A stretch of DNA of 64,000 nucleotides from Candidatus Uhrbacteria bacterium (GCA_016844925.1 JAERTI010000038.1:66936-130935); one strand, 5' to 3'. Positions 6,966 through 61,832 are shown, numbered from the stretch's first letter. Numbers and translations: made by a program. The notes: a model not told the origin generated them from the letters alone.

Positions 6966-8267
6966 CTATGTCTTGAGAAGTTCTCGTGTGGCCTCTTTGT
7001 AGCTTTCGACAGCCGGTTGATTGAAGGCGTTTACATTCATTAACTTTGCGAGGTACATCATTTCGATCATTCTGAACTGGAGGTAGTAACCAAGCTCGCG
7101 TGGAGTGATGCCCTCCATGTCGATTTCTAGGAATGGACGCTGCTTGTTTTTGTAGGCCGCTTTCACGCCACCGACGATAGCGGCAGTGATTTGCTCCAGG
7201 CTCTTCCCTCCAATGTCCTGCACAAGTCCTGGCATCTTCATTTCTCGTGGAACGAGATTGATGTCGCCCTTGAAGGAGTAGATGATGTTGGTGAACTTGT
7301 CGTCTGGGCCGCCGTAGTAGAGCTGGGCCATGGAGTGGAGGTCGGTTGAGCCGATCGAGACAATCGGCGTGATACCTGCATTCACTACATCTCCATTAAG
7401 GTTTTTTTCTTTTCCAACACTTTCTCCCATGAGCTGTCGATACCACTTTCCGAGTGATTCAAGTTTTGCGGCGTAGACAAAACTGTTGTGAATGGAGCGT
7501 CCGAGTTCTGCGTGAAGGTACGTGCAGGCAGCACTCACGAGAGCGTGGTTACGAGTGAGGTCATCGGAGAGATTGTCTTGCAAGGCGTCGCGTGCTCCGC
7601 TGCGCATGGCTTCTATGTCGATCTTGCCTAGGAGCAGTGGTACTAATCCGACGGCACTCATGACGCTATAGCGACCACCAACCTGTTTAGGGATGGCGAT
7701 GCGGTGGGTTTTGTGTTGCTCGGAGGCTTTCCAAAGGTTGGAGCCTTCGTCGGTGATAAAGCAGAAGCGATCACGGACATCGCCAAACTGTTCTTCAAGT
7801 GATCGCCAGAGGACTTCGGTGTTGGAGATGGTTTCTGTGGTACCTCCAGACTTGCTTACTGAGATAATGGCAAAGTCTTCTCGGCTAGGCATGCGTGAGA
7901 GAATGCGCACCACAGCGGTCATGCGTTCATCTGAGACCGTGTCGAGAAATAGGAGCTTGGGGAGACGGTCATACAGCAGGCTCATGGATCCTGCGATGGC
8001 ATCGTAGACGGCTTGAGTTCCAAGGTTTGAACCTCCAATACCGATGACGACGATGTATTGAAGGGTGGGTGTTTTAATAGCCTCTACAAGCGCTTGTGCG
8101 CGTTCAAGTTGTCCATCGTCAGACGGGAGCTGGAGGGAGCACTCAGGATCGGCATAATCCGTCTTTTGTGCAACGGCCTGTAGGTGGGCGCGGTACTCAT
8201 TGAGCGACGCGGCTGTTTTGGTGAGTTCTGCGTCGTCTATGAGGGTGTGGGTGGCATGGAATTTCAT
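6966..8267 (-). CDS. pgi: glucose-6-phosphate isomerase (short bacterial/archaeal type)
   Basis: 433 aa. The IGIGGSNLG motif and overall PGI-family similarity support the call. Confidence 0.85.
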   Translation of the reverse strand: MKFHATHTLIDDAELTKTAASLNEYRAHLQAVAQKTDYADPECSLQLPSDDGQLERAQALVEAIKTPTLQYIVVIGIGGSNLGTQAVYDAIAGSMSLLYDRLPKLLFLDTVSDERMTAVVRILSRMPSREDFAIISVSKSGGTTETISNTEVLWRSLEEQFGDVRDRFCFITDEGSNLWKASEQHKTHRIAIPKQVGGRYSVMSAVGLVPLLLGKIDIEAMRSGARDALQDNLSDDLTRNHALVSAACTYLHAELGRSIHNSFVYAAKLESLGKWYRQLMGESVGKEKNLNGDVVNAGITPIVSIGSTDLHSMAQLYYGGPDDKFTNIIYSFKGDINLVPREMKMPGLVQDIGGKSLEQITAAIVGGVKAAYKNKQRPFLEIDMEGITPRELGYYLQFRMIEMMYLAKLMNVNAFNQPAVESYKEATRELLKT

Positions 8268-8308
8268 AGTGGAATAATCATACTACGGATGCTGAGAGGG
8301 GGTAAGTA

Positions 8309-8337
8309 GTTGATCCATGGGAGTCTGGATGATAATC
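8309..8337 (+). promoter_or_regulatory. sigma70-like promoter of small peptide gene 1
   Basis: TTGATC-N17-TAATCT, with an overlapping GATAAT. Confidence 0.5.
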
Positions 8338-8378
8338 TGGTTGATGTGCAACAGCCGAAAGGCAGAAAGGAGTGCATC

Positions 8379-8501
8379 ATGCACTGCACGAACGACTTGA
8401 TCGAGAGCGGGATCATCACGAACGAGCTCCAGGACGGCGGCATGATCGATGGCCTCGATGGCGGCATCATCGACAACAAGCTGGTCGACCCCGGCATCTA
8501 G
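8379..8501 (+). CDS. small acidic peptide (40 aa) MHCTNDLIESGIITNELQDGGMIDGLDGGIIDNKLVDPGI
   Basis: Perfect RBS aaaggag 6 nt upstream. Own promoter and own terminator. Confidence 0.5.
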   Translation: MHCTNDLIESGIITNELQDGGMIDGLDGGIIDNKLVDPGI

Positions 8502-8537
8502 CACGACTGCTGATCGCCGACACTGCCCTTACGGGCC

Positions 8538-8566
8538 CCCGGGCTACGGCTCGGGTTTTTATTTTG
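8538..8566 (+). terminator. rho-independent terminator
   Basis: cccgggc-tacg-gctcggg followed by tttttatttt. Confidence 0.6.
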
Positions 8567-8574
8567 GCTCATGC

Positions 8575-8603
8575 TTGATCGATGTAGGGTGGGTTGCTAT
8601 GCT
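8575..8603 (+). promoter_or_regulatory. sigma70-like promoter of small peptide gene 2
   Basis: TTGATC-N17-TATGCT. Confidence 0.5.
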
Positions 8604-8638
8604 GTGTGAGCCAACCAAGGCAACGACCAAGGAGTGCC

Positions 8639-8788
8639 ATGTTCACGACCATCAAGCTCGGAATGCTCAGCGGAGACGACGGCTCGGCCAAGGGTGCCAA
8701 CGCCGACATCTCCATCATCCACCGGCTCGATCACACGCCGATCGACGGTCAGCTCTCCAACCTCAACGACGTCACCGTCGAGTTCTAG
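8639..8788 (+). CDS. small acidic peptide (49 aa) MFTTIKLGMLSGDDGSAKGANADISIIHRLDHTPIDGQLSNLNDVTVEF
   Basis: RBS ccaaggag 6 nt upstream. The cassette is paralogous to the preceding one at the DNA level, with the same -35, RBS context and terminator stem. Confidence 0.5.
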   Translation: MFTTIKLGMLSGDDGSAKGANADISIIHRLDHTPIDGQLSNLNDVTVEF

Positions 8789-8825
8789 CCCGCCGCTAGT
8801 CAGACGAAGACGTACCCTCATGGGT

Positions 8826-8853
8826 CCCGAGCCACGCTCGGGTATTTATTTTG
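8826..8853 (+). terminator. rho-independent terminator (cccgagc-cac-gctcggg + tatttatttt)
   Basis: Perfect 7-bp GC stem plus a T-rich tail. It shares its stem sequence with the terminator at 8538. Confidence 0.65.
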
Positions 8854-8888
8854 TCTAAGAAAAAACTCGCCGAGTGGGCGAGGGGAGG

Positions 8889-9425
8889 CTAGCGGACCTC
8901 GACGTGCGTGGTGCCGAGGAGGTTGCCATCGTGGCGGGCTTCTACCGTCCAGGTGCCGGACTTGCGCAGGGTCTTCTCGTCGCGGGTGCGCCAGGCGGGG
9001 GACGGGCTGGTGATGCGCACGGTCTCGATGCGGTAGGGGGTGTCCGGGACGGACTCGTGGTACCAGATGAACTGGATCTCGATGGGAACAGTGGCGTGTC
9101 GCGGCGTGGCGACGGACACCCAGGCGTAGACCTTGGTGTTCACGGCGCTGGTTGCGATCGCGCCCGTGCTGTTCTTGCCGTCGAGCCCTGCGGCGATGTG
9201 GAACTCGTTCGCACGCACGGTGGTCACGGCGTCCCAGCCCTCCATGAGGGTGCGGTCCGCTTCCATCTGCATCAGGCGATCGACGCGGTCGGGATCCTGA
9301 GCGAGAGCCTCGATCCAGGCCTGCTGCTCGGGGTCGAGCCGCGTGTCCTGGGCGAAGGCGTGGTTGCCGCACAGGGTGAGGGCAAGGGAGCCGACAATGG
9401 CGAGGGGAACCAGGGTTCTCATCAT
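8889..9425 (-). CDS. secreted hypothetical protein
   Basis: Signal peptide MMRTLVPLAIVGSLALTLCGNHAFA. 178 aa with GC-rich codons. Confidence 0.55.
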   Translation of the reverse strand: MMRTLVPLAIVGSLALTLCGNHAFAQDTRLDPEQQAWIEALAQDPDRVDRLMQMEADRTLMEGWDAVTTVRANEFHIAAGLDGKNSTGAIATSAVNTKVYAWVSVATPRHATVPIEIQFIWYHESVPDTPYRIETVRITSPSPAWRTRDEKTLRKSGTWTVEARHDGNLLGTTHVEVR

Positions 9426-9560
9426 TTCCTCCAGGTGGTTGACGAGGCCGCACCTTAACGTCGAAATGCATGTTGGTCAACCGTGTGGATATCTACTTCG
9501 GTCACAAACGTCTAGGTGCTACACTGAATGTATTGAAATTAACTCGTGTCTTATTTACAT

Positions 9561-9785
9561 ATGAAAACATGCAAAAACTGCGGTAAGTGTGGTCCTCACT
9601 GTATTGGGAAGTGGCTCGTCATCATCGGTGGTTTGAACTGGGGACTGATGGGTCTTCTTGGTTACAATGCCGTCGAAGAGCTTCTGGGTGCCTGGCCATG
9701 GCTCGTCACGCTCGTCTACGTACTTGTTGGTCTCTCTGCGGTTCTGATGATCATTGAGAGCAAATGTGGAAAATGTAAGCGATAA
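9561..9785 (+). CDS. DUF378-like small membrane protein with Cys clusters at both ends
   Basis: The core IIGGLNWGLMGLLGYN matches DUF378. CxxCxxCxxxC lies at the N-terminus and CGKC at the C-terminus. Confidence 0.6.
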   Translation: MKTCKNCGKCGPHCIGKWLVIIGGLNWGLMGLLGYNAVEELLGAWPWLVTLVYVLVGLSAVLMIIESKCGKCKR

Positions 9786-9820
9786 AATAAACATCAGGGC
9801 CTGAGCCCTGATTTTTTATT

Positions 9821-10306
9821 GTGTTACCATTGAATCCTATGATCAAAGAAGGAGTAAAGGCACCGGGGTTTGAACTTCCGGACCAAGAGGGAAAGACGCA
9901 CAAGCTTTCTGATTACAAGGGAACGTGGGTGTTACTGTACTTTTATCCAAAGGATGATACGCCCGGCTGCACAAAAGAAGCCTGTGCCATTCGTGATAAC
10001 TGGTCGGCATTTAAGAAGTTAGGGGTTCAAGTGTTTGGTGTGAGCGCGGATTCGGTGAGTAAACATGCAAAGTTCGCGGACAAGTATGAGCTTCCGTTTA
10101 CGCTTCTTGCTGATGAGGAGAAACAAGTTGTTGAGTCGTATGAGGTGTGGGGATTGAAGAAGTTTATGGGGCGTGAGTACATGGGGATTCATCGATCGTC
10201 CTATTTGATTGATCCAAAAGGGAAGATTGCAAAGGTGTATGAGAAGGTGAAGCCTGCCAGTCATGCCGAAGAGATTCTGCAAGACTTGAAGGAGTTAATG
10301 GGGTAG
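9821..10306 (+). CDS. bcp: thiol peroxidase, Bcp-type peroxiredoxin
   Basis: YFYPKDDTPGCTKEAC active-site region. 161 aa. Confidence 0.85.
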   Translation: MLPLNPMIKEGVKAPGFELPDQEGKTHKLSDYKGTWVLLYFYPKDDTPGCTKEACAIRDNWSAFKKLGVQVFGVSADSVSKHAKFADKYELPFTLLADEEKQVVESYEVWGLKKFMGREYMGIHRSSYLIDPKGKIAKVYEKVKPASHAEEILQDLKELMG

Positions 10307-10359
10307 CATTGAACGATCTTTTTTCTTGTTTAATAGTCGTGGTATACTATTTTTAGCTT

Positions 10360-10803
10360 ATGAAAGTTATCCTCATCCAGGACGTAACGTCTTTAGGGAA
10401 GGAGGGGGACGTCGTGCAGGTGTCCGCCGGACATGCGCAAAATTTTTTGTTTGCGCAGAACTTGGCCGTTCCCGCCACTCCCGATGCGCTTAAAAAACGA
10501 GCGGAGATTGAGAAAGCAGCAGCTCGAGCTGCGCACAAAAATCTTTCGGTCTCTGGTGATCTGGCTGCACAGCTGGAAGGTCACGAGGTTGTCCTGAAAG
10601 AAAAGGTGAGCGAGGGTGGTGTTTTGTACGCGGCTGTAACGGAGAAAGCGATCGCTTCGGCCATGAAGAAGAGTGGTCTGAAGGTGACGCAAAAAATGAT
10701 CAAACTCTCAGAGCCTATCAAGGCTCCAGGAACCTACACGGTGACTATTGAGCTCCCGCACGGTTTTGAAGCCCAAGTGAACCTCATCGTCGAAGAAAAA
10801 TAA
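10360..10803 (+). CDS. rplI: 50S ribosomal protein L9
   Basis: MKVILIQDVTSLGKEGDVVQVSAGHAQNFL N-terminal domain, 147 aa. Confidence 0.9.
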   Translation: MKVILIQDVTSLGKEGDVVQVSAGHAQNFLFAQNLAVPATPDALKKRAEIEKAAARAAHKNLSVSGDLAAQLEGHEVVLKEKVSEGGVLYAAVTEKAIASAMKKSGLKVTQKMIKLSEPIKAPGTYTVTIELPHGFEAQVNLIVEEK

Positions 10804-10850
10804 TCAAACGGGCTTCCGCCCGTTTTTGAACAATCCGTTTTGAAGAATCT

Positions 10851-12476
10851 ATGACCCATCGTTTTATTTTTGTTGTAGGAGGAGTGATGTCTGGTGTTGG
10901 TAAGGGTGTCACCACAGCTTCCATCGGGAAAATTCTCCAGTCTCGAGGATTGACGGTCACGGCGATCAAGATTGATCCGTACGTGAACGTTGATGCAGGT
11001 ACCATGAATCCTGTGGAACATGGCGAAGTGTTTGTGACTGACGATGGGGACGAGACGGATCAGGACATGGGGAACTATGAGCGTTTTCTTGATGTTGATC
11101 TGACGTCAACGAATTACATGACGACAGGGCGTGTCTATCAGACGGTCATTGAGCGCGAACGAAACCTTGAATACAAAGGGCGGTGTGTGCAGGTTGTGCC
11201 GCATATCCCTCAGGAGGTCATTGATCGTATTCGTCGTGCGGCCGCCAATGCAAAGGCAGACGTAACAATGGTTGAGATTGGTGGAACCGTGGGAGAGTAC
11301 GAAAACATTTTGTTCCTCGAGGCGGCTCGCATGATGCACTTGGCTGACCCAGAGAACGTGCAGTTTATGCTCGTGAGCTATCTGCCTGTGCCAGCGCACT
11401 TGGGTGAAATGAAGACCAAGCCGACACAACACGCCTGTCGCACATTGAACAGCGCAGGCATCCATCCGGATTTTATTGTGTGTCGTGGTCAGTACTACAT
11501 GGACGAACCTCGCCGAACGAAGCTTTCCGTGTTCTGTAACGTGAAGCCGGAGGATGTTATTTCTGCCCCTGACGTCGATTCAATCTACAAGATTCCTGCT
11601 GTGTTTGAGGAACAGGGGCTTAGCGATACGATTTTAAAGAAGTTTGGCATCAAGCCGAAGAAGGCGGACATGGCAAAGTGGGAAGCAATGTCGGAGGTCC
11701 AAGAGAAGGCCACGAAGACGGTGAAGATTGGTGTGGTGGGAAAGTATTTTGCCACAGGGGAGTACACGCTTTCTGATTCGTACATCTCGGTGATTGAGGC
11801 ATTGAAGTCTGCGTCTTGGGCAAATAAGACAGCGATTGAACTGAAATGGATCAACTCTGAGGATTTTGAAAAAGATTCGTCAGCGCTCAGCCAGCTATCT
11901 GAATACGATGGGATTCTTGTGCCCGGTGGGTTCGGAACGCGTGGCATCGAGGGGGTTATTTCCACGGTTCGATACTGTCGAGAAAATAACGTTCCGTATT
12001 TCGGTATTTGTTATGGCATGCAACTTGCCTGTGTCGAGTTTGCGCGCAATGTCCTTGGAAAGGAGGCTGCTCATACAGTGGAGGTCGACGAGCAGACGCA
12101 GGATCCAATCATTCATGTGAATCCGATGCAGCTTGAGAACATTAAAGAGAATCGGTACGGCGGTACGATGCGTCTTGGGGCCTATGACTGTGATTTGGTG
12201 AAAGGATCTGTTGCGGCTGCAGCGTACGGAAAGAAGTCGGTTTCAGAACGTCACCGTCATCGCTATGAGTTTAACAATGACTACAGAGATGAGATCGAGG
12301 AAAAGGGGATGATCGTCTCAGGTGTAAATCCACAGACGAACTTGGTAGAGATCGTTGAGATCAAAGATCATCCGTTCTTTGTGGGAGTGCAGTTCCATCC
12401 TGAGTTTAAGTCGCGACCACTGCGACCACATCCGATTTTCAAGGCGTTTATTAAGGCGGCATTAGAGAAAAAATAA
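10851..12476 (+). CDS. pyrG: CTP synthase
   Basis: N-terminal synthetase domain FVVGGVMSGVGKG. C-terminal GATase domain with a catalytic Cys region. 541 aa. Confidence 0.95.
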   Translation: MTHRFIFVVGGVMSGVGKGVTTASIGKILQSRGLTVTAIKIDPYVNVDAGTMNPVEHGEVFVTDDGDETDQDMGNYERFLDVDLTSTNYMTTGRVYQTVIERERNLEYKGRCVQVVPHIPQEVIDRIRRAAANAKADVTMVEIGGTVGEYENILFLEAARMMHLADPENVQFMLVSYLPVPAHLGEMKTKPTQHACRTLNSAGIHPDFIVCRGQYYMDEPRRTKLSVFCNVKPEDVISAPDVDSIYKIPAVFEEQGLSDTILKKFGIKPKKADMAKWEAMSEVQEKATKTVKIGVVGKYFATGEYTLSDSYISVIEALKSASWANKTAIELKWINSEDFEKDSSALSQLSEYDGILVPGGFGTRGIEGVISTVRYCRENNVPYFGICYGMQLACVEFARNVLGKEAAHTVEVDEQTQDPIIHVNPMQLENIKENRYGGTMRLGAYDCDLVKGSVAAAAYGKKSVSERHRHRYEFNNDYRDEIEEKGMIVSGVNPQTNLVEIVEIKDHPFFVGVQFHPEFKSRPLRPHPIFKAFIKAALEKK

Positions 12477-13797: not shown

Positions 13798-14193
13798 ATG
13801 CATCGACACAAAAAATCTCTTGAACAGTTCTGGAAAAACTTCCGGCAGATGTTCGTGAAAAGTAAGATGGTGCGGATTACAGCATTCATCTCATTTGTGT
13901 TTATTGCCATAACGTTCGCGCTCCCAGTGTGGCGCATTCTGCCCATGGCAAGCGAAACGCCGTTCATTGCACTTCACTACAACATCTATCTTGGCGTAGA
14001 TCGCTTTGGTCCCGTGCATTCGCTGTTTGTCCTTCCTGCCATGAGCCTCGGTTTTTTTCTGCTGAATGTATTCATTCAGGCTCATGCGTATCGAAGGCAA
14101 AAGACACTGACGTATTTTTTTGCCGCTGCGACCCCGGTGATCACGTTTATCCTCATGGTTGCTATGACTTTGATTGTGTTGATTAATCTATGA
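13798..14193 (+). CDS. hypothetical membrane protein
   Basis: The ATG is 2 nt after the nifU-like stop. Three TM helices. The stop overlaps the mraY start. Confidence 0.5.
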   Translation: MHRHKKSLEQFWKNFRQMFVKSKMVRITAFISFVFIAITFALPVWRILPMASETPFIALHYNIYLGVDRFGPVHSLFVLPAMSLGFFLLNVFIQAHAYRRQKTLTYFFAAATPVITFILMVAMTLIVLINL

Positions 14194-15245
14194 CCTTGGA
14201 ATCGTTTGAAATTGTCCGTGTTCTTCTTCTTAGTGCCGTGGCATTTGTGATTGCATTTGCTTGGGCACCGCTGTTACTTCGAGCGCTCGAGCATTGGGGG
14301 GCGGGGAAATCTATTCGTGCTGCCAGCGACGCTCCTGTCTTTGCAAGGCTCCATGCAAAGAAAAGTGGGACACCAACCATGGGGGGTATCTTGATCTGGT
14401 TTACCGTTCTTGCGATCGCCTTGGTGCTCTACTATTTGGCTCCACTACTGCCAGAGGGGTCACTCATAGCGCGGATGAACTTCCTCTCTCGCTCAGAAGT
14501 ATTGCTCCCACTCGGGGCGCTTGTTGCCTCCGCGATTGTTGGGTTTGTTGATGACTACTTTAATATTCGCGGTATTGGCCCAAAGGGGGGTGGTCTGCGC
14601 ATGCGACACCGTCTGGGAATCTATACAGCCATCGCTGTTGTGGGAGCTTGGTGGTTCCGGGTGAAGCTCGATTGGGATTTGCTTCACATTCCGTTTGTTG
14701 GCGATTTTAATATCGGCATGTGGTATGTCCCGTTTTTTATCTTGGTGATTGTTTCCACGGCGTTTTCTGTGAATGAGGCCGATGGTCTCGATGGCCTTGC
14801 TGGTGGGGCACTGCTCACGTCCTTTGGTGCCTATGCGGTCATTGCGTTTGCACAAGGACGCTACGACCTTGCGGTGTTCTGTGGAGTGATCCTCGGGGCG
14901 CTGCTTGCCTTTCTCTGGTTTAATATTCACCCAGCAAAGTTCTTCATGGGCGATACGGGAGCCATGTCCCTTGGGGTAACGCTTGGGATCGTGGCGATGC
15001 TGACGAACTCTGCATTGTTCCTTCCGATTATTGGTTTCATCTTTGTTCTGGAATCACTCTCTGTCATTGCACAGATTTTTAGCCGCAAGGTGCTCAAGCG
15101 GCGGTTATTCAAAAGCGCTCCCATTCATCACCATCTAGAAGCCATTGGGTGGCCTGAGCCGCAGATTGTGATGCGCATGTGGGTGATCTCCATGATTGCT
15201 GCGGCCGTTGGTGTTTCTTTCGTGCTCATTGATGCCTTGATTTAA
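14190..15245 (+). CDS. mraY: phospho-N-acetylmuramoyl-pentapeptide transferase
   Basis: Polytopic membrane protein with MraY motifs (DDxxN-type region, HHHLE). Confidence 0.9.
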   Translation: MTLESFEIVRVLLLSAVAFVIAFAWAPLLLRALEHWGAGKSIRAASDAPVFARLHAKKSGTPTMGGILIWFTVLAIALVLYYLAPLLPEGSLIARMNFLSRSEVLLPLGALVASAIVGFVDDYFNIRGIGPKGGGLRMRHRLGIYTAIAVVGAWWFRVKLDWDLLHIPFVGDFNIGMWYVPFFILVIVSTAFSVNEADGLDGLAGGALLTSFGAYAVIAFAQGRYDLAVFCGVILGALLAFLWFNIHPAKFFMGDTGAMSLGVTLGIVAMLTNSALFLPIIGFIFVLESLSVIAQIFSRKVLKRRLFKSAPIHHHLEAIGWPEPQIVMRMWVISMIAAAVGVSFVLIDALI

Positions 15246-16351
15246 TGTCTCGCTCAAAAGGATCAATCGATGTTTTACTGTTGGTCATTGTTGCTGTGAT
15301 CGTACTTTTTGGGCTTGTCATGCTCTTAAGTGCTTCAGCTCCAAGTGGATACTCTCAGTTTGCCGACAGTTACTACTACGTGAAGCATCAGATGATTTTT
15401 GGATTGATCCCTGGAATCGGTGCGATGGTCGCTTTCGCGCGCATTCCGTACACGTTCTGGCGTAAACATGCGTGGAATCTTCTCTTGCTTTCGATTGTGT
15501 TGCTTGTGCTCGTGTTTATTCCAGGACTCTCTGCAGGGATTGGAACGGCGCGCAGTTGGATTTCTGTTGGTGGTGTGTTTTCCTTGCAGCCATCTGAGGT
15601 CGTGAAACTGACCTTTTTGTTTTATCTCGCTGCTTGGCTCGCTCAGCGTGACAAGCATTCTGTGCGTGATGTTCAGGCCGGGTTCTTGCCCTTTGTCTTC
15701 GTGCTCGGAACCATCATGCTCTTGATGATCTTACAGCCAGACATTGGAACCATGTCCATCATCGCGGCCATGAGTCTTGTTGTCTATTTTGTTGCCGGTG
15801 CGCCGATTAGTTATGTGCTGGGATTAATCGCGGCTGGTGTGGCAGGGCTTCTGGCGCTGATTACGGCAGCCCCATATCGAGCTGCACGTTTTACAACGTT
15901 CCTACATCCTGAGCTCGATCCACAAGGGATCGGCTACCACATCAACCAGGCGCTCTTAGCGATTGGGTCTGGTGGAATCTTTGGTGTGGGTTACGGCCAT
16001 TCGCGACAGAAGTTTCAATATCTCCCTGAGGTGGCCAGCGATTCGATCTTTGCCGTGATTGGGGAAGAGATGGGCTTCATGGTTGCCGCACTGACGATTG
16101 GATTGTTCCTGTTGTTTCTCTGGCGCATCCTCGAGATTGCGAAGCGCTCTCCAGATAGTTTTGGAAAATATGTCGTGGTGGGAGTAGGGGCGTGGATTGT
16201 GATCCAAGCTTTTGTCAACATTGGTTCAATGGTCGCCCTCATGCCAATCACGGGTGTGCCGCTTCCATTTATTAGTTATGGGGGGACATCGCTGGCCATT
16301 TCGCTTGCTGCCGTGGGGGTGGTGTTAAACGTCTCTAAGAGCATGAAATGA
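15245..16351 (+). CDS. ftsW: SEDS-family peptidoglycan polymerase FtsW/RodA
   Basis: Ten TM helices and the SEDS signature. Located between mraY and murG. Confidence 0.85.
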   Translation: MSRSKGSIDVLLLVIVAVIVLFGLVMLLSASAPSGYSQFADSYYYVKHQMIFGLIPGIGAMVAFARIPYTFWRKHAWNLLLLSIVLLVLVFIPGLSAGIGTARSWISVGGVFSLQPSEVVKLTFLFYLAAWLAQRDKHSVRDVQAGFLPFVFVLGTIMLLMILQPDIGTMSIIAAMSLVVYFVAGAPISYVLGLIAAGVAGLLALITAAPYRAARFTTFLHPELDPQGIGYHINQALLAIGSGGIFGVGYGHSRQKFQYLPEVASDSIFAVIGEEMGFMVAALTIGLFLLFLWRILEIAKRSPDSFGKYVVVGVGAWIVIQAFVNIGSMVALMPITGVPLPFISYGGTSLAISLAAVGVVLNVSKSMK

Positions 16352-16352
16352 T

Positions 16353-17402
16353 ATGAAGGTGCTTTTTACCGGTGGAGGAACGATGGGCCCTGTGACGCCG
16401 CTTTTGGCTGTGCATGAGGCTCTCAAGGAAACGGATGTGCGTGTCGATGCTGTTTGGGTGGGTACACCTCATGGACCTGAACGTAGCGTGGTCGAGGCGC
16501 AGGGGATGCGTTTCTTCTCGCTTCCGGTTGCGCGACTTCCTCGCCGTCTCTCACTTGAGCTGTTGGCGTTGCCCGTGACGTTCACACGAGCCCTGTGGGG
16601 AGCATGGCGACTCCTTCATCGTGAGCGGCCGAGTGTGATTGCGTCGGCTGGGGGGTACACGGCTGTGCCGGTCATTGTGGCCGCGCGTACTCTCAAGATT
16701 CCCGTGTGGGTGCATCAGCAAGATGTAACACCGATTCTGACGAATCGACTCACAGCCCCGCTTGCCACACGTGTGACCGTTGCGTTTAAAGCTTCGACGA
16801 GCTTGTCGAAACGAGCTCAGGTCGTCGGCAACCCTGTGCGTCCAAGTGTGTTGAAAGGCGATCCTCAGCGGGCACGTGCATTTTTTGAAATTCGAAATAC
16901 TAAGCCGACGGTTCTTGTTTTTGGTGGTGGAACGGGGGCTAAGTGGATTAATGAACAGATCGATGAGATCGCCTTGAGTCTGGTTTCGCGGGCGAATGTG
17001 ATTCATCTGACAGGGAAGGGGAAGCGTGAGAACAAGAAGCGTCACCCGGATCATCACGCGCGGGAGTTTCTTGGTGGCGAGATGGCTGACGCGCTCGCGC
17101 TCGCCGATGTGGTGGTGTGCCGCGCAGGTCTTGGGACAATTACGGAGCTCGCGGCGCTTTCCAAGCCAGCGATTGTCATCCCGTTGCCACATTCACCACA
17201 AGAGGCAAACGCAGCGGCTGTGGAAGGGGCGTGTGTGGTGCTGCATGAGCATCGAACGAGCGCGGAAGACTTGCTCCGAGAAATTGAATCGCTCTTGGAC
17301 GATGCAGATGATCGAAGGGACCTTGGGGCAAAGATGCACGGCATGCTTTCAACAAACATTGCCGATGAGCTGGCACAGATGCTCATCGGGATGTCGAACT
17401 AA
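16353..17402 (+). CDS. murG: UDP-GlcNAc:lipid I N-acetylglucosaminyltransferase MurG
   Basis: N-terminal GGGTMGPVTP and a GT28 fold. 349 aa. Confidence 0.88.
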   Translation: MKVLFTGGGTMGPVTPLLAVHEALKETDVRVDAVWVGTPHGPERSVVEAQGMRFFSLPVARLPRRLSLELLALPVTFTRALWGAWRLLHRERPSVIASAGGYTAVPVIVAARTLKIPVWVHQQDVTPILTNRLTAPLATRVTVAFKASTSLSKRAQVVGNPVRPSVLKGDPQRARAFFEIRNTKPTVLVFGGGTGAKWINEQIDEIALSLVSRANVIHLTGKGKRENKKRHPDHHAREFLGGEMADALALADVVVCRAGLGTITELAALSKPAIVIPLPHSPQEANAAAVEGACVVLHEHRTSAEDLLREIESLLDDADDRRDLGAKMHGMLSTNIADELAQMLIGMSN

Positions 17403-17694: not shown

Positions 17695-17831
17695 AGGAGT
17701 TGTTTGCGTTAGTGATTAACGGTCATCAGTATAGATCACGACCACCATCGTGGCAAATGCCCCACAAACAGAAACACGCCCATACGACAGGTCGCACAGA
17801 CGTGCTCTGTCGCGCTAGGCGCGCGCGTTGG

Positions 17832-18134
17832 TCAGGAGGCCTTGGCGGCATCCTTCGTGAGTCGGGTGATCGTTCCGGTCCGCTTGTCGGTCCGGTAGTA
17901 GATCTTGTACTTCTGGGAGAAGTCAGCCGACTGTCCCTTGATGTTGAAGCTCTGCCCGCTGCCGTCCTCGATGCCGACGTCGGTGACGTTGACGATGATC
18001 TTCAGCGACTCCCCCACGGTGAACACCACCGGGCGGGGCTTGTCGCTGGTCCTGTCGAACAGGGCCAGCATGAGGTTGTACTTGCTTGGTCCGTCCGTGA
18101 CATTGCGGAAGGCCGGGCCTTTGATCGTGGGCAT
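17832..18134 (-). CDS. hypothetical protein
   Basis: Start chosen at MPTIKGP, which has an AAGGAG RBS 8 nt upstream. GC-rich. No recognisable domain. Confidence 0.5.
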   Translation of the reverse strand: MPTIKGPAFRNVTDGPSKYNLMLALFDRTSDKPRPVVFTVGESLKIIVNVTDVGIEDGSGQSFNIKGQSADFSQKYKIYYRTDKRTGTITRLTKDAAKAS

Positions 18135-18469
18135 GCCCACTCCTTGCGTGAGAGACTCCATGACTGACGCTGGAGCCGGGCGCCTGAGACCCAAGGCGGG
18201 TCTCACAACCAAGGCATACACCAAGGTTGGACACCCCAAGATAGCCTATTTTAGGCCTTTTGTCAACCCTCAGGGGTTGCACCCAAGAACTTTTATTGCT
18301 ATATTCTGCGCGTTGGAGATCGCCCCTCAGGGCACGGCGAATCGTAAAACATCCAAAATTGGATGAGATTCCGCCGCCCGAGCGAAGCACTGAAGGAGAC
18401 GACCTAAAACGGTCGTTGACTGAAGAGCGCAGCGAGAAGGTGGAAGATCGCCAATTTTGGATGGTTTAC

Positions 18470-46274: not shown

Positions 46275-46280
46275 TTTCCC

Positions 46281-46310
46281 AAAATAAATACCCGCCATGC
46301 GTTGGCGGGG
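46281..46310 (-). terminator. rho-independent terminator (minus strand) with GGGTATTTATTTT tail
   Basis: Reverse complement reads ccccgccaacgcatggcgggtatttatttt. Confidence 0.6.
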
Positions 46311-46317
46311 TGTCGCT

Positions 46318-46785
46318 TCACTGGGTGAAGTGGCCGTCCATGTAGTTGTCCATGCAGATCTCACCTTCGGCGAGCAGACGGACGGTCTTTCGGGTGACGA
46401 GGATCTGCGGGGGGAACAGGTCGACAGCATCGTCCAGGAGGCAGTTCACGCTTTCGGCGGCGTCGGACTCTTCGACACGGAATCGCAGGCGCTTGTCGTC
46501 GTGGCGCATGTGATCCATGTGACGCTGAGCGGCGCGCAGGGCCATGGTGTCGTTGGGGAACTCGCCGTCGGCGTAACAGACGCGGATGTAGGTGGATCCA
46601 CGGATGAGATGCCAGCGGATGGTTGCCCAGTGAGTGGATTGGTCATCCAGGCCGGTGAGCTTGATGCTCATGGCGTGCACGCGTCGGACCAGCTTGAGCT
46701 TGGGTCGCGCGTTGCGTCGGGTTGATGGGCGGGGGGTTGACGTGGTGGGGACGAGGCCGAACAGGGCGGCAATGAGTCCTCTCAC
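46318..46785 (-). CDS. hypothetical protein
   Basis: 155-aa ORF, GC-rich. The true start may be an internal Met (MSIKLTG). Confidence 0.4.
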   Translation of the reverse strand: MRGLIAALFGLVPTTSTPRPSTRRNARPKLKLVRRVHAMSIKLTGLDDQSTHWATIRWHLIRGSTYIRVCYADGEFPNDTMALRAAQRHMDHMRHDDKRLRFRVEESDAAESVNCLLDDAVDLFPPQILVTRKTVRLLAEGEICMDNYMDGHFTQ

Positions 46786-46912
46786 GTGGTCTCCTTTCTT
46801 GCGCGGATGCGCAGGGTGTTGACCGTCTCAGGGCGAGACAGACGCCTCAACCTAATCGCTTTTTGTTGTTTTGTCAATGAAAAGCCCCCGCTTGCGTAGC
46901 GGGGGTTGCGTA

Positions 46913-47983
46913 CTAATCGCTCGAATCCAGGAGCGACTTCGTGCCGGCCGTGGGGCCGGGGAGGAGCGGGCGGGTGCCGGCTCCGGGGACGTGCAGCGGG
47001 TCGCTGGGCGTTCCCTTTCCAACCAGGGCGATGGACTTCATCACCGTGGCGACGTTGATGGTGCCGTGCTGGGTTGGCAGCTGGCGGCTCTTGAGCTGTC
47101 CGGTGAACAGGGCGAGCTGGCCGGTCATGGCGGCGATGGTGCCGAGCATGACGTCCACGATGCGCCGGGGATCGTTCAAGGGGACGATGGCCTCGGGGCT
47201 GGGGAGCATGCGCTCCCAGTACGGGCGGATGGCGTCGGCCTTGGCTCCGTAGTAGGCGCCGGTGTCGAACAAGATGGTGAAGAGGTTCATCCGGCGTGAG
47301 AGCAGGGTGAAGACGCTCTTGGCATCCATGAGGTCCGAGGGGACGTCCAGGTCCAGCCAGCGCCTCACCAGCGGGGCGCTGATGCGGTCGCAGCCGGCCT
47401 CGTCCGTGATGATCCAGGTGTAGACGTTGCGCGCCTGGCTCACATCCACCTGCTGGAGAAGGTAGTAGGCGACGAGCTCGGGGGTTTCCGAGCCCTGGCC
47501 TCCACCACCGCAGTTCATGTAGAAGGACGAGAGGATCTGGTCCAGTTCCTGTTCGCGGCCGAAGCGTGCGACCTGGACCGCGTGGCTGTCCGTGCGGGCG
47601 TCACCGAAGCAGATGAACAGGATCTCGAGGTCGTCGCTTCCCAGGTAGGTCACGGCTTCCTGCCACATCAGCGGCAGGCGCTTGAAGATCTCCTCGGGGT
47701 TGTCGCCCATCGAGCCCGTCACATCACAGGCGACGATCAAGACGTTGGCCGCCGTGGCGACCAGCTTGTGCGTGGCCGTGGGAATGGGCGTCGACGCGGT
47801 CTGCGTGAACGCCTTACGCGGCGGGGGCTTGGGGGCGCTGACCGGCGGCGTGTCCGGGCCGATCTTCTGTACGCGAGGATTCTTGTGCGCGGAGACCGCG
47901 CGAGAGAACCAGCCGCCAGTCTGCTGGCGCGTGGGGGGCGTGTTGTGCGAGTCGTTGCGGACCCAACCGAATGCTCCAGACAT
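46913..47983 (-). CDS. von Willebrand factor A (vWA) domain protein
   Basis: MIDAS-type LIVACDVTGSMGD. A Pro/Thr-rich linker lies N-terminal to the vWA fold. 356 aa. Confidence 0.7.
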   Translation of the reverse strand: MSGAFGWVRNDSHNTPPTRQQTGGWFSRAVSAHKNPRVQKIGPDTPPVSAPKPPPRKAFTQTASTPIPTATHKLVATAANVLIVACDVTGSMGDNPEEIFKRLPLMWQEAVTYLGSDDLEILFICFGDARTDSHAVQVARFGREQELDQILSSFYMNCGGGGQGSETPELVAYYLLQQVDVSQARNVYTWIITDEAGCDRISAPLVRRWLDLDVPSDLMDAKSVFTLLSRRMNLFTILFDTGAYYGAKADAIRPYWERMLPSPEAIVPLNDPRRIVDVMLGTIAAMTGQLALFTGQLKSRQLPTQHGTINVATVMKSIALVGKGTPSDPLHVPGAGTRPLLPGPTAGTKSLLDSSD

Positions 47984-47993
47984 GATGTACTCC

Positions 47994-48770
47994 TTAGCGA
48001 AGCTTGAAGGCTTCGCGGGTTGCTGTGCGGCCGAAGATGGTTTTACGGAGTCCGGCCAGCTCCTGGTTCAGTTTGCGTGCGTCCTGTGGGCGGGCCATGG
48101 GGTCGCGTCGGATCATCTTGGCGATGAAGGTGCTCAGCCGTGGATCCATGTCCTGCGGCAGCGCACCGTTCATCACATTGCCGCCACTAAGAGCAACGGC
48201 GGTCATCCCCAGCGAGAAGATGTCACTGGCGGGGATGGGCGGGAGTCCCTGCTGGAACTCTGGCGGGATGAAGTGCGGCGTGCCGCCCTTGGCTCGTGCG
48301 TCCGCTCCAGGGCCCACGATGGTCAGCCCGAAGTCCACCAGCACAGCGTTGTGCGTGGGGATGTCCAGGATGATGTTCGCTGGCTTGATGTCGCAGTGCA
48401 CGGCCCGCATGTAGTGCAGGTAGCTCAGGGCATCGAGCACACGCTGGAGGATCCAGCAGATGTGTTCATCGTGCACAGGGCCTTTGCGCTGCAGGACGTC
48501 CGCCAGACTTTCACCCTCGATGTAGGACATCACGGCCACCTGACCGAAGTCTGGATGCTCGAGGTAGTCCTTGAGGGTGGGGAGGCTGACGTGATGGATG
48601 CCCCAGAGGATCTTGGCTTCCTCGCGGAAGAGATCCATGTAGGCAGGGTCACCCGTCTTCTCTTGCTTGATGCAGACGGGTTCGCCCAGGAGCCTGTGCC
48701 GCCCGAGGAAGGTGCGTCCGAACGCTCCTTCTGAGATTTGGCGCTCGACTTGGTAGTTGCCGATCTTCAT
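47994..48770 (-). CDS. serine/threonine protein kinase (kinase domain only)
   Basis: GAFGRTF glycine loop, the VCIK lysine, catalytic HCDIKPANIIL, DFG and PPE motifs. 258 aa with no sensor or TM domain. Confidence 0.85.
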   Translation of the reverse strand: MKIGNYQVERQISEGAFGRTFLGRHRLLGEPVCIKQEKTGDPAYMDLFREEAKILWGIHHVSLPTLKDYLEHPDFGQVAVMSYIEGESLADVLQRKGPVHDEHICWILQRVLDALSYLHYMRAVHCDIKPANIILDIPTHNAVLVDFGLTIVGPGADARAKGGTPHFIPPEFQQGLPPIPASDIFSLGMTAVALSGGNVMNGALPQDMDPRLSTFIAKMIRRDPMARPQDARKLNQELAGLRKTIFGRTATREAFKLR

Positions 48771-49912
48771 GCCTTCTCCAGGGTGAAGAGGGTTTTGAGG
48801 GTTTCTGCCAGACGGTTGAGGCCGCGGGCGCTGCGATCAGGGTCGAGGTCGTTCAGGTAGTGAATGACGTGACCGTGACTGTGGCGCTCGGCAGTTGCCT
48901 GCAGTGTTTCGATCTTGCGCTGCGCGCTCCACTGGTGCTTGCCAATGCGCTTGAGCGTTGTGGCGTCGATCTTGCGCTTGTCTGCGAGAGCCTCTCGGTC
49001 CGTGGCTTCCACCACGATGGCGTTGCCGCTCACCATGGCGCTCATGTTCATCTCGGCAAGCTGCGCCCACTCCACGATCACCAGTCCCTTGGCCTGCGCG
49101 AGTGCCTTGCGGTACAAGCGCATGACGTGAGGGGTGGTGAGGGCGTGGATCTGCGTACGCGTCTCGTCCGGGCAGTGAGGATCGAACAGGCGCGTCTTGA
49201 GCGCGTCCCGGTCGACTTCCTTGCCGTCAGCCGTCAGGACATCTGGGCCCAGGAGGGTGGCGAGGGTATCGCGGACCTTCTGTGCACCAGGAGTCGCCTC
49301 GACGTAGAGGTCGCGAATGAGCTGGTCGAAGTTGATATGCGTGGCGCCGAGGCGCGTTGCGAGCTCACCTGCGACGTAGCTCTTGCCGCTGGCCATCTCG
49401 CCGGTGATGCCGATGAGATGCCTGCCGAGCAGACGCTCTTCCAGCGCCGCCTTCACGAAGAGGGGGACGAAGGGAGAGATGTCGACATGGTGGCAGGTGA
49501 GAGCCTTCACGAGTGAGCTCGAGATTTCGCGGAGTTCCTGCCGCGCTGGCAGGAACTCGACAAGCTCAGAGAAGCCGGGGAGCAGGAGGTCGTGGTAGGC
49601 CATCTGCTGGGCTTCGTACGCCTGGTCCGTCTCGTTGCGGATGCCGCGGAAGACGCGGTCGCAGCCGTGCTGAATGAACGCATCGACCAGCAGGCCGGTG
49701 GAGGAGTGAACCTCGACGTTCTTGAGATGCTCCAGGGCGCGTCGCGTCATGGCGACACGCTCGCTCAGCGTGAAGGTGTAGCGGCCGCGCTTGGCATCGT
49801 TGTCAGCGATGAGCACGATCAGGGTGTCGCAGCGTGAGGCTGCACGAGTGATCAGATCAATATGGCCGAAGGTGATGGGATCGGCCGAGAGGGGAAGCAG
49901 TCCTGTGGTCAT
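48767..49912 (-). CDS. coaDE: fused phosphopantetheine adenylyltransferase / dephospho-CoA kinase (CoaD-CoaE)
   Basis: The N-terminal 160 aa align with CoaD (LLPLSADPITFGHIDLITRA, ISSSLVK). The C-terminal half aligns with CoaE (IGITGEMASGKSYVAGELATRLGA). The stop overlaps the kinase start by 4 nt. Confidence 0.8.
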   Translation of the reverse strand: MTTGLLPLSADPITFGHIDLITRAASRCDTLIVLIADNDAKRGRYTFTLSERVAMTRRALEHLKNVEVHSSTGLLVDAFIQHGCDRVFRGIRNETDQAYEAQQMAYHDLLLPGFSELVEFLPARQELREISSSLVKALTCHHVDISPFVPLFVKAALEERLLGRHLIGITGEMASGKSYVAGELATRLGATHINFDQLIRDLYVEATPGAQKVRDTLATLLGPDVLTADGKEVDRDALKTRLFDPHCPDETRTQIHALTTPHVMRLYRKALAQAKGLVIVEWAQLAEMNMSAMVSGNAIVVEATDREALADKRKIDATTLKRIGKHQWSAQRKIETLQATAERHSHGHVIHYLNDLDPDRSARGLNRLAETLKTLFTLEKA

Positions 49913-54749: not shown

Positions 54750-55388
54750 TCAGGCCGCGAGGGACTCGAGCTCGCGAGCGATGTTCTCGCGGGCGTGGGC
54801 CTCCAGGGCGTGGCGCAGCTGCGGCGTCTGGTAGATGTGCGGCCTCTCGAGGAACGTGCGCATGAACCTGGCGCGTAGGAGCTCGTAGTCATCTCCACGG
54901 ATCCAGCCGTACTCCTTGCGGATGTCCGTGGTGTACGCGTCGTAGCGCTCGCGGGTCGCGCCAAGGATGGCCAGGTCGATGTCGTTCACCCAGCAGGTGG
55001 CGTTGTCGTCCGAGGCAGCGTGACCCTTGGTGGCCATGATGAGCGCCTCCACGCGGGTGACCACCGGCAGCGAGAGCATCTGCGAGTCCTGGAGCCCGGA
55101 GTCCGTCAGGAAGACGGTTCTGAACTGCAGTGCACTGCTCTGCTCGTTGTCCATGTTCTCGGGGACGTAGACGGCATCGTGCCAGAAGAGCGCAAGCGCG
55201 ACGAGAGCTGGGTTCTCCATGTGAGAGCGGTGCTGCTGCCAGAGAGCGAAGCACTCGTCCAGGTGCTGGCGCGTGTGGTAGTGCCGCTGAGGCATCCCAT
55301 ACTGACGCATCAGCATGTTGAATACGTCGCGCCGGGGCGGAAGGCCCCAGGTCTCCATGATCAGTTTCCAGATTTCGTACAGCCTCAT
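54750..55388 (-). CDS. HD-superfamily phosphohydrolase-like protein
   Basis: H..H...D...LALFWHDAVY arrangement of His/Asp typical of HD domains. 212 aa. Confidence 0.5.
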   Translation of the reverse strand: MRLYEIWKLIMETWGLPPRRDVFNMLMRQYGMPQRHYHTRQHLDECFALWQQHRSHMENPALVALALFWHDAVYVPENMDNEQSSALQFRTVFLTDSGLQDSQMLSLPVVTRVEALIMATKGHAASDDNATCWVNDIDLAILGATRERYDAYTTDIRKEYGWIRGDDYELLRARFMRTFLERPHIYQTPQLRHALEAHARENIARELESLAA

Positions 55389-56580: not shown

Positions 56581-58596
56581 ATGAAATTTGAACTCAAATC
56601 AAACTACAAACCTGCGGGCGACCAACCAAAGGCGATCAAGCAATTGGTGGCTGGTCTTGAGGATGGCCAGCCGCACCAAACACTCTTGGGTGTCACCGGA
56701 TCGGGAAAGACGTTCACGATGGCGAACGTGATTGCGCAGACGCAGCGTCCGACGTTGGTGATCGCGCACAACAAGACGCTCGCGGCACAGCTGTGCAATG
56801 AGTTCAGGGAGTTTTTTCCAGATAATGTCGTGGAGTACTTTGTGAGTTACTACGATTACTACCAGCCTGAGGCCTACATGGCTCGCTCTGATACGTACAT
56901 CGAGAAAGAGGCAATGATTAACGATGAGATTGATCGATTGCGACATGCGGCCACGCAGGCATTGCTATCTCGTCGAGATGTGATCATTGTGGCGAGTGTT
57001 TCATGCATCTATTCATTGGGGAGCCCTGATGAGTATAAGAAGACCGTGTTACATCTCACGGTGGGAGATGAGGAGATGACGCGTACAGAGATTTTAAAGA
57101 GGCTCGTCTCCATGCAGTTTGATCGGACAACGGCGGATTTGGTGCGCGGATCGTTTCGGGCGCGTGGAGATGTGTTGGAGATTATGCCGATGAATGAGGA
57201 GGTGTTGTATCGGTTGCTTCTGGAAGATGAGAAGGTCATGACCATCCAGCAGCTCGATCCTGTCTCACGAAAGATTCAAGATACGTTGCAGGACATCTGG
57301 TTGTTTCCAGCCAAGCACTATGTTGTTTCCACGACGTCGCAGCAACGGGCGCTTAAGGCGATCCGCGCGGAGCTGAAGCAGCGACTGAAGGAGTTTGATA
57401 AAGATGGAAAGGTGCTTGAGGCCGAGCGATTGTCTCGGCGTACGCGTTATGACTTGGAGATGATTCAGAATATCGGGTACTGCAACGGCATCGAGAATTA
57501 CAGTTCACATTTTGAGGGGCGTGAGCCTGGGGAGCCGCCGTTCACGTTGATCGACTATTTTCCAGATGACTTCCTGACGATTATCGACGAGTCTCACGTG
57601 ACCGTTCCGCAGGTCGGAGCGATGTACAACGGAGACAAGGCGCGTAAGGAGAGTCTTGTCGAGCATGGGTTCCGGCTGCCGTCTGCTAAAGACAACCGTC
57701 CGCTGAAGTTTGTGGAGTTTGAAGATCGAATGAATCAGGTGATTTACACAAGCGCCACGCCGGGAGTGTATGAGAAGAAGGTATCGGGCAAGCCGGTGGA
57801 GCAGATTATTCGTCCAACAGGACTTGTCGACCCGGTGATCACAATTCGACCCGTGAGTGCGGATGAGAAGTATGACGGGCAGGTAGAGGATTTGATCCAG
57901 GAGGTTGAGAAGCGTGTTCAGATGAAAGAGCGAACACTGGTGACGACGCTGACCAAGAAGATGGCTGAGGACCTGACAGAGTTCCTCGTCGAGAGGGGGA
58001 TTAAAGTGCAGTATCTCCACTCGGATGTGAAAACGTTTGATCGTGTGCAGGTGCTCTCAGATTTGCGAAAGGGATTGTATGACGTCGTGGTGGGAGTGAA
58101 CTTGCTGCGTGAGGGGCTCGATCTGCCAGAGGTGACATTGGTAGCGATCCTTGATGCGGACAAAGAGGGATTCCTGCGCTCGGAAACGTCCATTGTTCAG
58201 ACAATCGGTCGTGCAGCTCGGAACGTGAAGGGGGAAGTGATTCTGTATGCCGACAAGATGACAGGCTCTCTGGAGAAGGCAATTAAGGAGACGGAGCGTC
58301 GTCGAAAAATTCAAATTGCCTACAACAAGAAGCACGGCATTACCCCTAAGACGGTTGCGAAGGAGATTAAGGACATGCGGGAGATGCTGGGGGTTGAAGG
58401 GGAGACGGATGTCAAAGAGATCCTCAAGTTGGAGCTGATAGCGGAGCCACATGAGCTCAAGGTCGTGATTAAAGAAAAGGAATACGACATGAAGGAGGCG
58501 GCGAAGAAGTTGGACTTTGAGACGGCGGCGCTGCTGAGAGATGAGATTGATCTTCTGAAAAAAGAACTCGAACAAAAAAAGAAGAAGCGTAAGTAG
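56581..58596 (+). CDS. uvrB: excinuclease ABC subunit B
   Basis: Helicase motifs GVTGSGKT and DESH. C-terminal UVR domain [14 protein letters not shown]. Confidence 0.95.
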
Positions 58597-58597
58597 T

Positions 58598-61117: not shown

Positions 61118-61150
61118 AAAAGTAGGGCCTTAGCCCTACTTTTTTCTTGA

Positions 61151-61753: not shown

Positions 61754-61832
61754 AGGGTTATTTTATGAGTCGTGAGGGCAGTTTATAGGAACTTTTTTGG
61801 CAGGACAAGCAGGGTGTGTACAATAGAAACAC

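Follow-up and report, generated by a model that had tools for sequence, protein, structure and literature searches.

Are two very short, adjacent open reading frames (ORFs), each framed by what appear to be its own expression signals, real and related genes, and how do they evolve? The question is raised by positions 8309 to 8853 of a 64,000-nucleotide (nt) stretch of DNA from Candidatus Uhrbacteria bacterium (GCA_016844925.1 JAERTI010000038.1:66936-130935), referred to here as the window. The sequence-only reading, a note made earlier from this DNA without database searches, had proposed that tandem duplicated cassettes at this site encode two small acidic peptides, of 40 and 49 amino acids (aa). 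Both ORFs are present, and we call them pepA and pepB. The explanation that we consider best, and probable on balance, is that they are related monocistronic small-protein genes, members of a class with a high G+C content at third codon positions (GC3), at a locus of fast turnover where the core of pepA has been replaced. The interest of the locus rests mainly on this allele replacement and on the two-class genome architecture.

Replacement of the pepA core between haplotypes

The pepA gene (8379-8501, plus strand) extends from the ATG at 8379 to the TAG at 8501 and encodes the 40-aa peptide MHCTNDLIESGIITNELQDGGMIDGLDGGIIDNKLVDPGI. Eleven metagenome contigs were found with the same synteny as the window, comprising pgi, a small ORF, a second small ORF, a 177-aa protein, DUF378, and AhpC/bcp. 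They derive from assemblies made independently of each other (ENA, Logan, and JGI), and some of them come from the northern Gulf of Mexico hypoxic zone (IMG 3300003894; record names SAMN05791316 and SAMN05791319). All 11 are mutually identical over 7177-9800, and only two haplotypes are known.

When the window was compared with the metagenome haplotype, most 100-nt bins were 90 to 100% identical, and identity was approximately 98 to 99% over 7400-8334 and 8537-8888. The segment at 8394-8536, which covers the pepA core and the first 35 nt of the 3' untranslated region (3'UTR), was unalignable, with about 54% identity and with indels, compared with 97 to 100% identity in the adjoining bins. It is enclosed by the constant flanks GTGCAACAGCCGAAAGGCAGAAAGGAGTGCATCATGCACTGCACGAAC and CCCGGGCTACGGCTCGGGTTTTT. 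Directly upstream lies a 48-nt block (8346-8393, plus strand) that is the same in both haplotypes and holds the 5'UTR, the Shine-Dalgarno sequence AAGGAG (8367-8372), the start codon, and the codons for MHCTN; downstream, the terminator of cassette 1 is likewise identical. Six haplotype differences fall in the -10 region of cassette 1 (8335-8345), upstream of the identical block. In the metagenome haplotype, the segment at 8394-8536 encodes MHCTNTFGINRGGIDKATGHIDSCMTSHEKLPIDGQISLPDGDQVIDGLDGGK, a peptide of 53 aa compared with the 40 aa of pepA in the window. At such low divergence of the flanks, point mutation cannot account for an unalignable core. A homologous cassette that diverged long ago has replaced the allele there, and recombination within the conserved signals was presumably the mechanism.

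Other sources of the difference were considered and rejected. An assembly chimera is contradicted by the recurrence of the same junctions in assemblies produced independently (SPAdes, MEGAHIT, Logan, and JGI). A diversity-generating retroelement does not fit because the changes in pepB (A>C, G>A, and T>C) are not limited to adenine and because the pepA core was replaced with indels; no reverse transcriptase was found among the approximately 45 window ORFs that were scanned. Gene conversion from a silent cassette was dismissed since the window contains no second copy of either core that could have served as the donor. A third allele was sought through contigs with exact copies of the neighboring proteins, and these contigs either had the metagenome haplotype already known or stopped short of the cassettes. 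One protein listed in the pepA cluster, P0021, proved to be an unrelated solute-binding protein.

The ORF was kept in both pepA alleles while its DNA was replaced, which runs counter to conservation of the region at the DNA level only. Both alleles are read from the same ATG and have a common motif, LQDGG-MIDGLDGG / LPDGDQVIDGLDGG, whose score was reached by 14 of 2,000 shuffles. About half of the identical residues in this motif are encoded by different synonymous codons, as expected of purifying selection on the peptide.

The second gene, pepB (8639-8788, plus strand), extends from the ATG at 8639 to the TAG at 8788, follows the Shine-Dalgarno sequence AAGGAG at 8629-8634, and encodes the 49-aa peptide MFTTIKLGMLSGDDGSAKGANADISIIHRLDHTPIDGQLSNLNDVTVEF. 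Between the haplotypes it shows three clustered changes (D13A, D14N, and S16P), all of them nonsynonymous. For the two flanking genes, which lie as first described, the corresponding numbers of nonsynonymous and synonymous codon changes are 12 and 8 in orf178 and 10 and 27 in pgi. The former is convergent with the cassettes (8866-9425, minus strand, including an ORF for 178 aa at 8889-9425 and its own terminator at 8882-8866) and has a signal-peptide-like N terminus, and the latter (6966-8267, minus strand) is divergent from them. The 3' end of pgi (6966-7176) holds all 25 sites that vary among the metagenome contigs within 6966-9800; the variants form blocks common to subsets of contigs, which suggests a recombination mosaic.

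Two gene classes in the window and the distribution of the peptides

The native genes of the window (pgi, bcp, rplI, pyrG, mraY, ftsW, murG, murD, uvrABC, and others, with examples at 6966-8267, 9561-12476, 14190-17402, and 56581-63176) have GC3 values of 0.50 to 0.60, typically around 0.55, and a Shine-Dalgarno site was found in 0 of 17. A TANNNT hexamer 4 to 14 nt before the ATG was present in 7 of 20 native genes, compared with 5% of random positions, an indication that their mRNAs are leaderless or have very short leaders. A minority class is characterized by GC3 values of about 0.8 to 0.95, a strong Shine-Dalgarno site in 10 of 11 genes and, typically, its own GC-rich terminator immediately downstream. 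This class includes ftsH, pepA, pepB, orf178, orf100, orf155, orf356, a Ser/Thr kinase gene, a CoaD/E-like gene, and orf212 (examples are at 349-2196, 8379-9425, 17832-18134, 46318-49912, and 54750-55388). The G+C contents of the first, second, and third codon positions are 0.55, 0.30, and 0.95 in pepA and 0.55, 0.37, and 0.90 in pepB; GC3 of orf178 is 0.90.

Further GC3-rich orphan units of this kind lie within the window. The orf100 unit (17772-18266, minus strand) has TTGACA and TATCTT at a spacing of 17 nt, AAGGAGTGGGC before the ATG, a 100-aa ORF at 17832-18134 (GC3 of 0.91; no Pfam match), and a terminator-like hairpin. The orf155 unit (46280-46875, minus strand) contains a 155-aa ORF at 46318-46785 with TTGACA upstream and the arrangement AAAGGAG-N6-GTG, and its terminator, CCCGCCAACGCATGGCGGG, is followed by the tail TATTTATTTTG as in cassette 2.

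A single distant homologue of orf178, 50% identical, was found, and the contig that carries it (L009; G+C content of 0.49) has a native GC3 of about 0.45. The positional homologues in L009 of orf178 (L009:5796-6290) and of orf185, the gene after pyrG (L009:2130-2627), are GC3-rich, with values of 0.84 and 0.82. The class is therefore old and has been maintained with no drift to the native composition, and recent horizontal transfer alone does not explain it. GC-biased gene conversion in often-recombining accessory genes and a separately maintained expression regime are possibilities for what lies behind it. The cassettes themselves do not extend to this relative. In L009, which is syntenic, the spacer at this place (486 nt; L009:6291-6776) is a different one that lacks ORFs and shows no trace of the cassettes, so that they were gained in, or kept only by, the lineage of the window. 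The L009 spacer, in which no ORF with signals was seen, contains the direct repeat GGTGGCGGAAGC twice beside the palindrome GGAAGCTAAGCTTCC.

Homologues were searched for with a word index over 5.8 billion proteins and with a full HMMER scan of 1.84 billion representatives. Among the 5.8 billion proteins, pepB alone, a four-peptide profile, and orf178 gave nothing outside the lineage except for the orf178 homologue mentioned above. The HMMER scan returned three peptides as the only small proteins; the other matches were weak, multi-stretch alignments to giant adhesins, in Big_9/Cadherin_4 repeats with the motif TPV[ND]GxI[ST]xxDxDGD, and their E-values (2e-9 to 6e-4) are owed to many repeated weak stretches. 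For the peptides, no Pfam family and no PADLOC or PHROG entry matched at an E-value of ≤1, and neither the peptides nor orf178 had a match in Pfam, NCBIfam, PADLOC, PHROG, or the PDB sequences. Searches of phage and plasmid collections by tblastn and blastn gave no matches. The terminator pattern in genome contigs and the 5' constant block in metagenome contigs found chance matches only (Aquimarina, an Omnitrophica metagenome-assembled genome, and a phage-like contig). The peptide family is confined to one uncultivated marine bacterial lineage. The expectation that standard gene callers would miss such ORFs was not borne out: both exact peptides are in the NCBI plus Logan protein collection, and the metagenome alleles had been called too. 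In three metagenome contigs, an antisense ORF of 74 aa was called in place of pepB.

Phage morons are autonomous prophage gene units with their own transcriptional control and a deviant G+C content, placed between adjacent phage or prophage genes (PMC2920897). The cassettes are like them in being short genes of deviant composition between conserved genes, with what appear to be their own promoter and factor-independent terminator, in their variable presence between relatives, and in the occurrence of different inserts at one spot. Transcriptional control (with promoters that are subthreshold) and deviant G+C content thus correspond, but the phage context does not: the cassettes are flanked by cellular housekeeping genes (pgi, DUF378, bcp, rplI, and pyrG) and have no PHROG or phage-genome match. 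In contrast to morons, moreover, the cassettes belong to an old compositional class whose positions are conserved in the distant relative L009.

Absence from L009, the next relative, would also fit functionless passengers, that is, young or decaying ORFs on foreign-type DNA, possibly fragments of cadherin-like adhesin repeats. The same can be said of the exclusively nonsynonymous changes in pepB, of the fact that native genes do not use Shine-Dalgarno sites, and of the weak match between the peptide profile and the TPVxGxIxxxDxDGD strand-loop of the Big_9/Cadherin_4 repeats. P-[IV]-[DN]-G-x-[IL]-[ST]...D-x-D-G-D, the Ca2+-binding strand-loop of these repeats, resembles PIDGQ[IL]S-LPDGD of the peptides, but the resemblance shows only in such weak profile matches, a peptide spans only about one-third of one domain of approximately 90 aa, and the Pfam gathering score is not reached. 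Decay is difficult to reconcile with the intact ATG, Shine-Dalgarno site, ORF, and terminator of both cassettes in two haplotypes and with the peptide motif that the divergent pepA alleles keep through synonymous changes, and the age of the GC3-rich class, also present in L009, argues for maintenance. We therefore consider passengers to be rather unlikely.

Coding capacity, expression signals, and kinship of the cassettes

The period-3 G+C signal begins at the ATGs of pepA and pepB and ends at their stop codons. In-frame upstream extensions from TTG at 8310 and TTG at 8594, which are used by some gene callers, have GC3 values of 0.57 and 0.47, and the resulting longer TTG-initiated ORFs of 63 and 64 aa were rejected because the extensions lack the GC3 signal. 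The contrast between third and second codon positions in the two genes was matched by only about 1% of random 135-nt windows. By these features pepA and pepB are very probably translated small-protein genes, and we infer that the peptides are made in vivo. Both are acidic, as had been claimed, with an isoelectric point (pI) of 4.05 for pepA (8 Asp plus Glu and 1 Lys plus Arg) and of 4.52 for pepB (7 and 3, respectively), and their grand average of hydropathy (GRAVY) is close to 0. On inspection, the N termini were without a hydrophobic stretch, in agreement with the claim that neither peptide has a signal peptide.

Alternatively, the cassettes could be small noncoding or dual-function RNAs (small RNAs [sRNAs]) whose ORFs are incidental in GC-rich DNA. 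The length of approximately 220 to 240 nt and the promoter-to-terminator layout would fit, and it is the block at 8346-8393 and the terminators that are most conserved, with an ORF body that is replaceable. Several overlapping ORFs exist on both strands, and both predicted transcripts fold modestly better than shuffled sequences (z = -1.9 and -2.4). These z-scores are owed largely to the terminators, however, and the period-3 pattern is exactly confined to the ORFs, which follow correctly spaced Shine-Dalgarno sites and retain an amino acid motif through synonymous changes. No Rfam family matched in searches extended to an E-value of 10; with the Rfam 15 covariance models, the top score in 8200-8950 was 14.7 bits (E = 2.7), where the gathering threshold is 50, and at the gathering threshold the whole window contained only three tRNAs. 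Incidental ORFs on sRNAs are thus quite unlikely, and the cassettes may have a dual RNA role beside coding. Sda, SgrS/SgrT, and SR1P are examples of monocistronic small proteins or dual-function sRNAs. Like these, each cassette would be a stand-alone unit of about 200 to 250 nt with a promoter, a Shine-Dalgarno site, an ORF of 40 to 50 codons, and an intrinsic terminator; unlike a member of any of these families, it shows no sequence similarity to them and no Rfam, Pfam, or PDB match.

Each unit had been credited with its own promoter, ribosome-binding site (RBS), and terminator, of which the last two were recovered. AAGGAG stands 4 to 6 nt before each ATG, and a terminator scan called both cassette hairpins; it found six terminator-like sites in 7900-9900, compared with 1.2 expected from shuffles. 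The promoters were read from the sequence and left uncalled by a consensus scan. In cassette 1, the promoter-like site (8310-8338, plus strand) would consist of the -35 box TTGATC (8310-8315), a 17-nt spacer ending in TG (8330-8331), and the -10 box TAATCT (8333-8338). The corresponding site of cassette 2 (8575-8603, plus strand), identical in all relatives, has TTGATC at 8575-8580, a 17-nt spacer ending in TG at 8595-8596, and TATGCT at 8598-8603. At this spacing, TTGATC is thus followed by TGaTAATCT in cassette 1 and by TGcTATGCT in cassette 2. The -35 box is indeed common to both cassettes, and the longer pattern TTGATC[CG]ATG has no copies in the window besides those at 8310 and 8575. The 3' end of cassette 1 (8526-8565, plus strand) comprises the mini-hairpin CCCTTACGGG (8526-8535), a terminator stem-loop (8538-8555), and a T-tail, and that of cassette 2 (8815-8852, plus strand) comprises the mini-hairpin CCCTCATGGG (8815-8824), a terminator stem-loop (8826-8842), and a T-tail. 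Base composition confirmed the GC-rich patch, with a G+C content of 0.60 to 0.68 against about 0.50; when the cassettes were compared with the surrounding genes, the values were 0.59 to 0.67 against about 0.50.

The block at 8346-8393 also contains two AAGG motifs (AAGGCA and AAGGAG) and the palindrome GTGCA-TCA-TGCAC around the start codon, and it could be a translational control site. Two further candidates were rejected, an integron cassette because there is no attC-like site and a transcription attenuator or leader peptide because cassette 2 faces a convergent gene and has nothing downstream to regulate.

The sequence-only reading held that the cassettes are paralogous at the DNA level, and this applies unevenly along their length. 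A local DNA alignment of the 3'UTRs and terminators scored 39, compared with 13 ± 2.2 for shuffles, none of which (0 of 1,000) reached that value. In the 5' part the similarity was marginal (5 of 1,000 shuffles reached it), and the coding cores in the window did not support the claim. The RBS context AAGGAGTGC is present at both cassettes (8367-8375 and 8629-8637), as had been stated. However, AAGGAGT[GA]C..ATG also precedes the unrelated GC3-rich orf356 (47983) and orf100 (18134), and the tail GGGTATTTATTTTG also ends the unrelated orf155 (46280-46294), so that both are class-wide signals and weak evidence for duplication. Paralogy of the coding part becomes visible only through the metagenome allele of pepA, which has in common with pepB a 22-nt stretch of 95% identity, GCCGATCGACGGTCAG[A/C]TCTCC, encoding PIDGQ[IL]S (0 of 2,000 codon shuffles reached this similarity). 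Because the metagenome allele resembles both pepB and the pepA of the window, the three peptides form one small family. To judge from these sequence comparisons, the pair most likely originated by tandem duplication of the whole transcription unit.

Possible roles and implications

The cassettes adjoin ORFs that are either orphans or housekeeping genes (pgi, DUF378, bcp, rplI, and pyrG), and the nearest neighbors are without a recognized domain. The signal-peptide-like N terminus of orf178 (…LTLCGNHAFA/QD) contains a Cys that was lost between haplotypes, and the protein is therefore not a lipoprotein; its gene has a Shine-Dalgarno site. AlphaFold2 gave orf178 a predicted local distance difference test (pLDDT) score of 41, which is not confident. 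The DUF378 ORF (79 aa), listed at 9546-9785, probably starts at ATG 9561; codon 3 of the upstream part is a stop in the other haplotype (TAT>TAG), and the C-terminal end is also haplotype dependent.

The rapidly evolving secreted protein next door, together with GG motifs in the peptides, would be in keeping with exported signals or weapons, such as pheromones, bacteriocins, or precursors of ribosomally synthesized and posttranslationally modified peptides (RiPPs), and replacement of the core would then represent a pherotype-like or bacteriocin-type polymorphism. At the pherotype loci comC, agrD, and comX, constant flanks enclose a variable peptide core. The cassettes likewise have near-identical flanks and expression signals around a core that differs between close strains through replacement by alleles of old divergence. 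Unlike those loci, they have no conserved leader and no nearby processing, export, or receptor genes, two alleles are known, and the peptides are acidic and appear unprocessed. The pepA alleles have only MHCTN in common, and pepB starts with MFTTI; five conserved N-terminal residues do not make a leader, and a signal peptide is lacking. Double-glycine leaders follow an LSxxELxxIxGG-type consensus and are accompanied by an ATP-binding cassette (ABC) transporter with a C39 peptidase. The GG of pepA (positions 20 and 21) is preceded by ITNELQD, which on inspection is out of register with that consensus. A Pfam and NCBIfam scan of the approximately 45 window ORFs found no radical-SAM, lanthipeptide, lasso, ATP-grasp, or YcaO enzyme, no C39-peptidase ABC exporter, no sensor kinase pair, and no toxin, and the domain-less adjacent ORFs may hide a novel enzyme. 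In addition, the peptides are acidic rather than amphipathic-cationic and contain little of the Cys, Ser, and Thr on which the usual modifications are made. Export, including the precursor-peptide role considered at the outset, is hence improbable.

Toxin-antitoxin or anti-defense components (e.g., an acidic antitoxin or a DNA-mimic peptide), a toxin/antitoxin role having been among the first suggestions, are hardly credible: the peptides are small, acidic, and fast evolving and lie in a compositionally foreign islet, but the units are separate and self-terminated, with no adjacent toxin, paired antisense RNA, or bicistronic arrangement and no PADLOC or PHROG match at an E-value of ≤1, the peptides (GRAVY of about 0) are not hydrophobic like type I toxins, and orf178 is a secreted protein rather than a cytoplasmic toxin. 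Overall, none of the functions first suggested (regulatory micropeptides, toxin/antitoxin-like components, or precursor peptides) gained support, and the peptides are unlikely to act as antimicrobials, in toxin-antitoxin modules, or as RiPP precursors.

We thus favor related small-protein genes with a replaced pepA core. Under this explanation, each unit would be transcribed on its own, from a promoter-like site to an intrinsic terminator, with a short ORF behind a strong Shine-Dalgarno site, and the pair would most likely have arisen by tandem duplication of a complete transcription unit. The products would be leaderless acidic peptides of 40 to 53 aa, rich in Asp, Gly, and Ile and with [ILVM]-D-G-type turn motifs. 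Both cassettes would be part of a class of accessory genes that are dispersed among the native ones across the genome and are GC3-rich, preceded by a Shine-Dalgarno site, and self-terminated. The pepA ORF core has been swapped for a divergent allele of old origin, an exchange in which the 5'UTR/RBS block on one side and the terminator on the other would have anchored recombination, and pepB and the secreted neighbor orf178 would gather mainly amino acid changes.

Several observations weigh against this explanation. The promoter-like sites score only 7 to 8 of 12 against the Escherichia coli consensus, which is below the threshold of the promoter scan. Native genes of the genome are without Shine-Dalgarno sites, which makes it uncertain that the host ribosome uses those of the cassettes. 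The coding cores of pepA and pepB in the window show no significant DNA or peptide similarity. The ratio of three nonsynonymous to no synonymous changes in pepB comes from a tiny sample of only two haplotypes and allows no formal test of diversifying selection. AlphaFold2 did not yield a confident fold for the 53-aa peptide (pLDDT of 49). Finally, no partner, receptor, or exporter was identified, and a functional reading is accordingly a guess.

Our guess, a tentative one, is that the peptides may be strain-specific binding modules, either partner binding or with a Ca2+-binding DG-turn, whose interface would be under diversifying selection, possibly together with orf178. It is prompted by the acidic, DG-turn-rich sequence and by the fast evolution beside a secreted neighbor; Ca2+ binding by the DxDGD-type loops is a conjecture from their sequence. 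A more far-reaching and distinctly doubtful possibility is a dimorphic, idiomorph-like micro-gene whose old alleles would be exchanged via anchors in the untranslated regions, forming a strain-recognition or partner-specificity system within a maintained second gene class. If this were true, two translation-initiation regimes would operate in one genome, with the second used by accessory, interaction-related genes.

If the peptides are translated, they would constitute a new orphan family of bacterial small proteins, and the locus would provide a clean natural case, from a lineage that is planktonic and uncultivated, of whole-ORF allele replacement within fixed expression signals. It would also be useful for studying the birth, duplication, and exchange of small genes. 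The two-class pattern may outweigh the two peptides in importance, as it raises the question of how foreign-type genes stay expressed and resist drift to the composition of the host.

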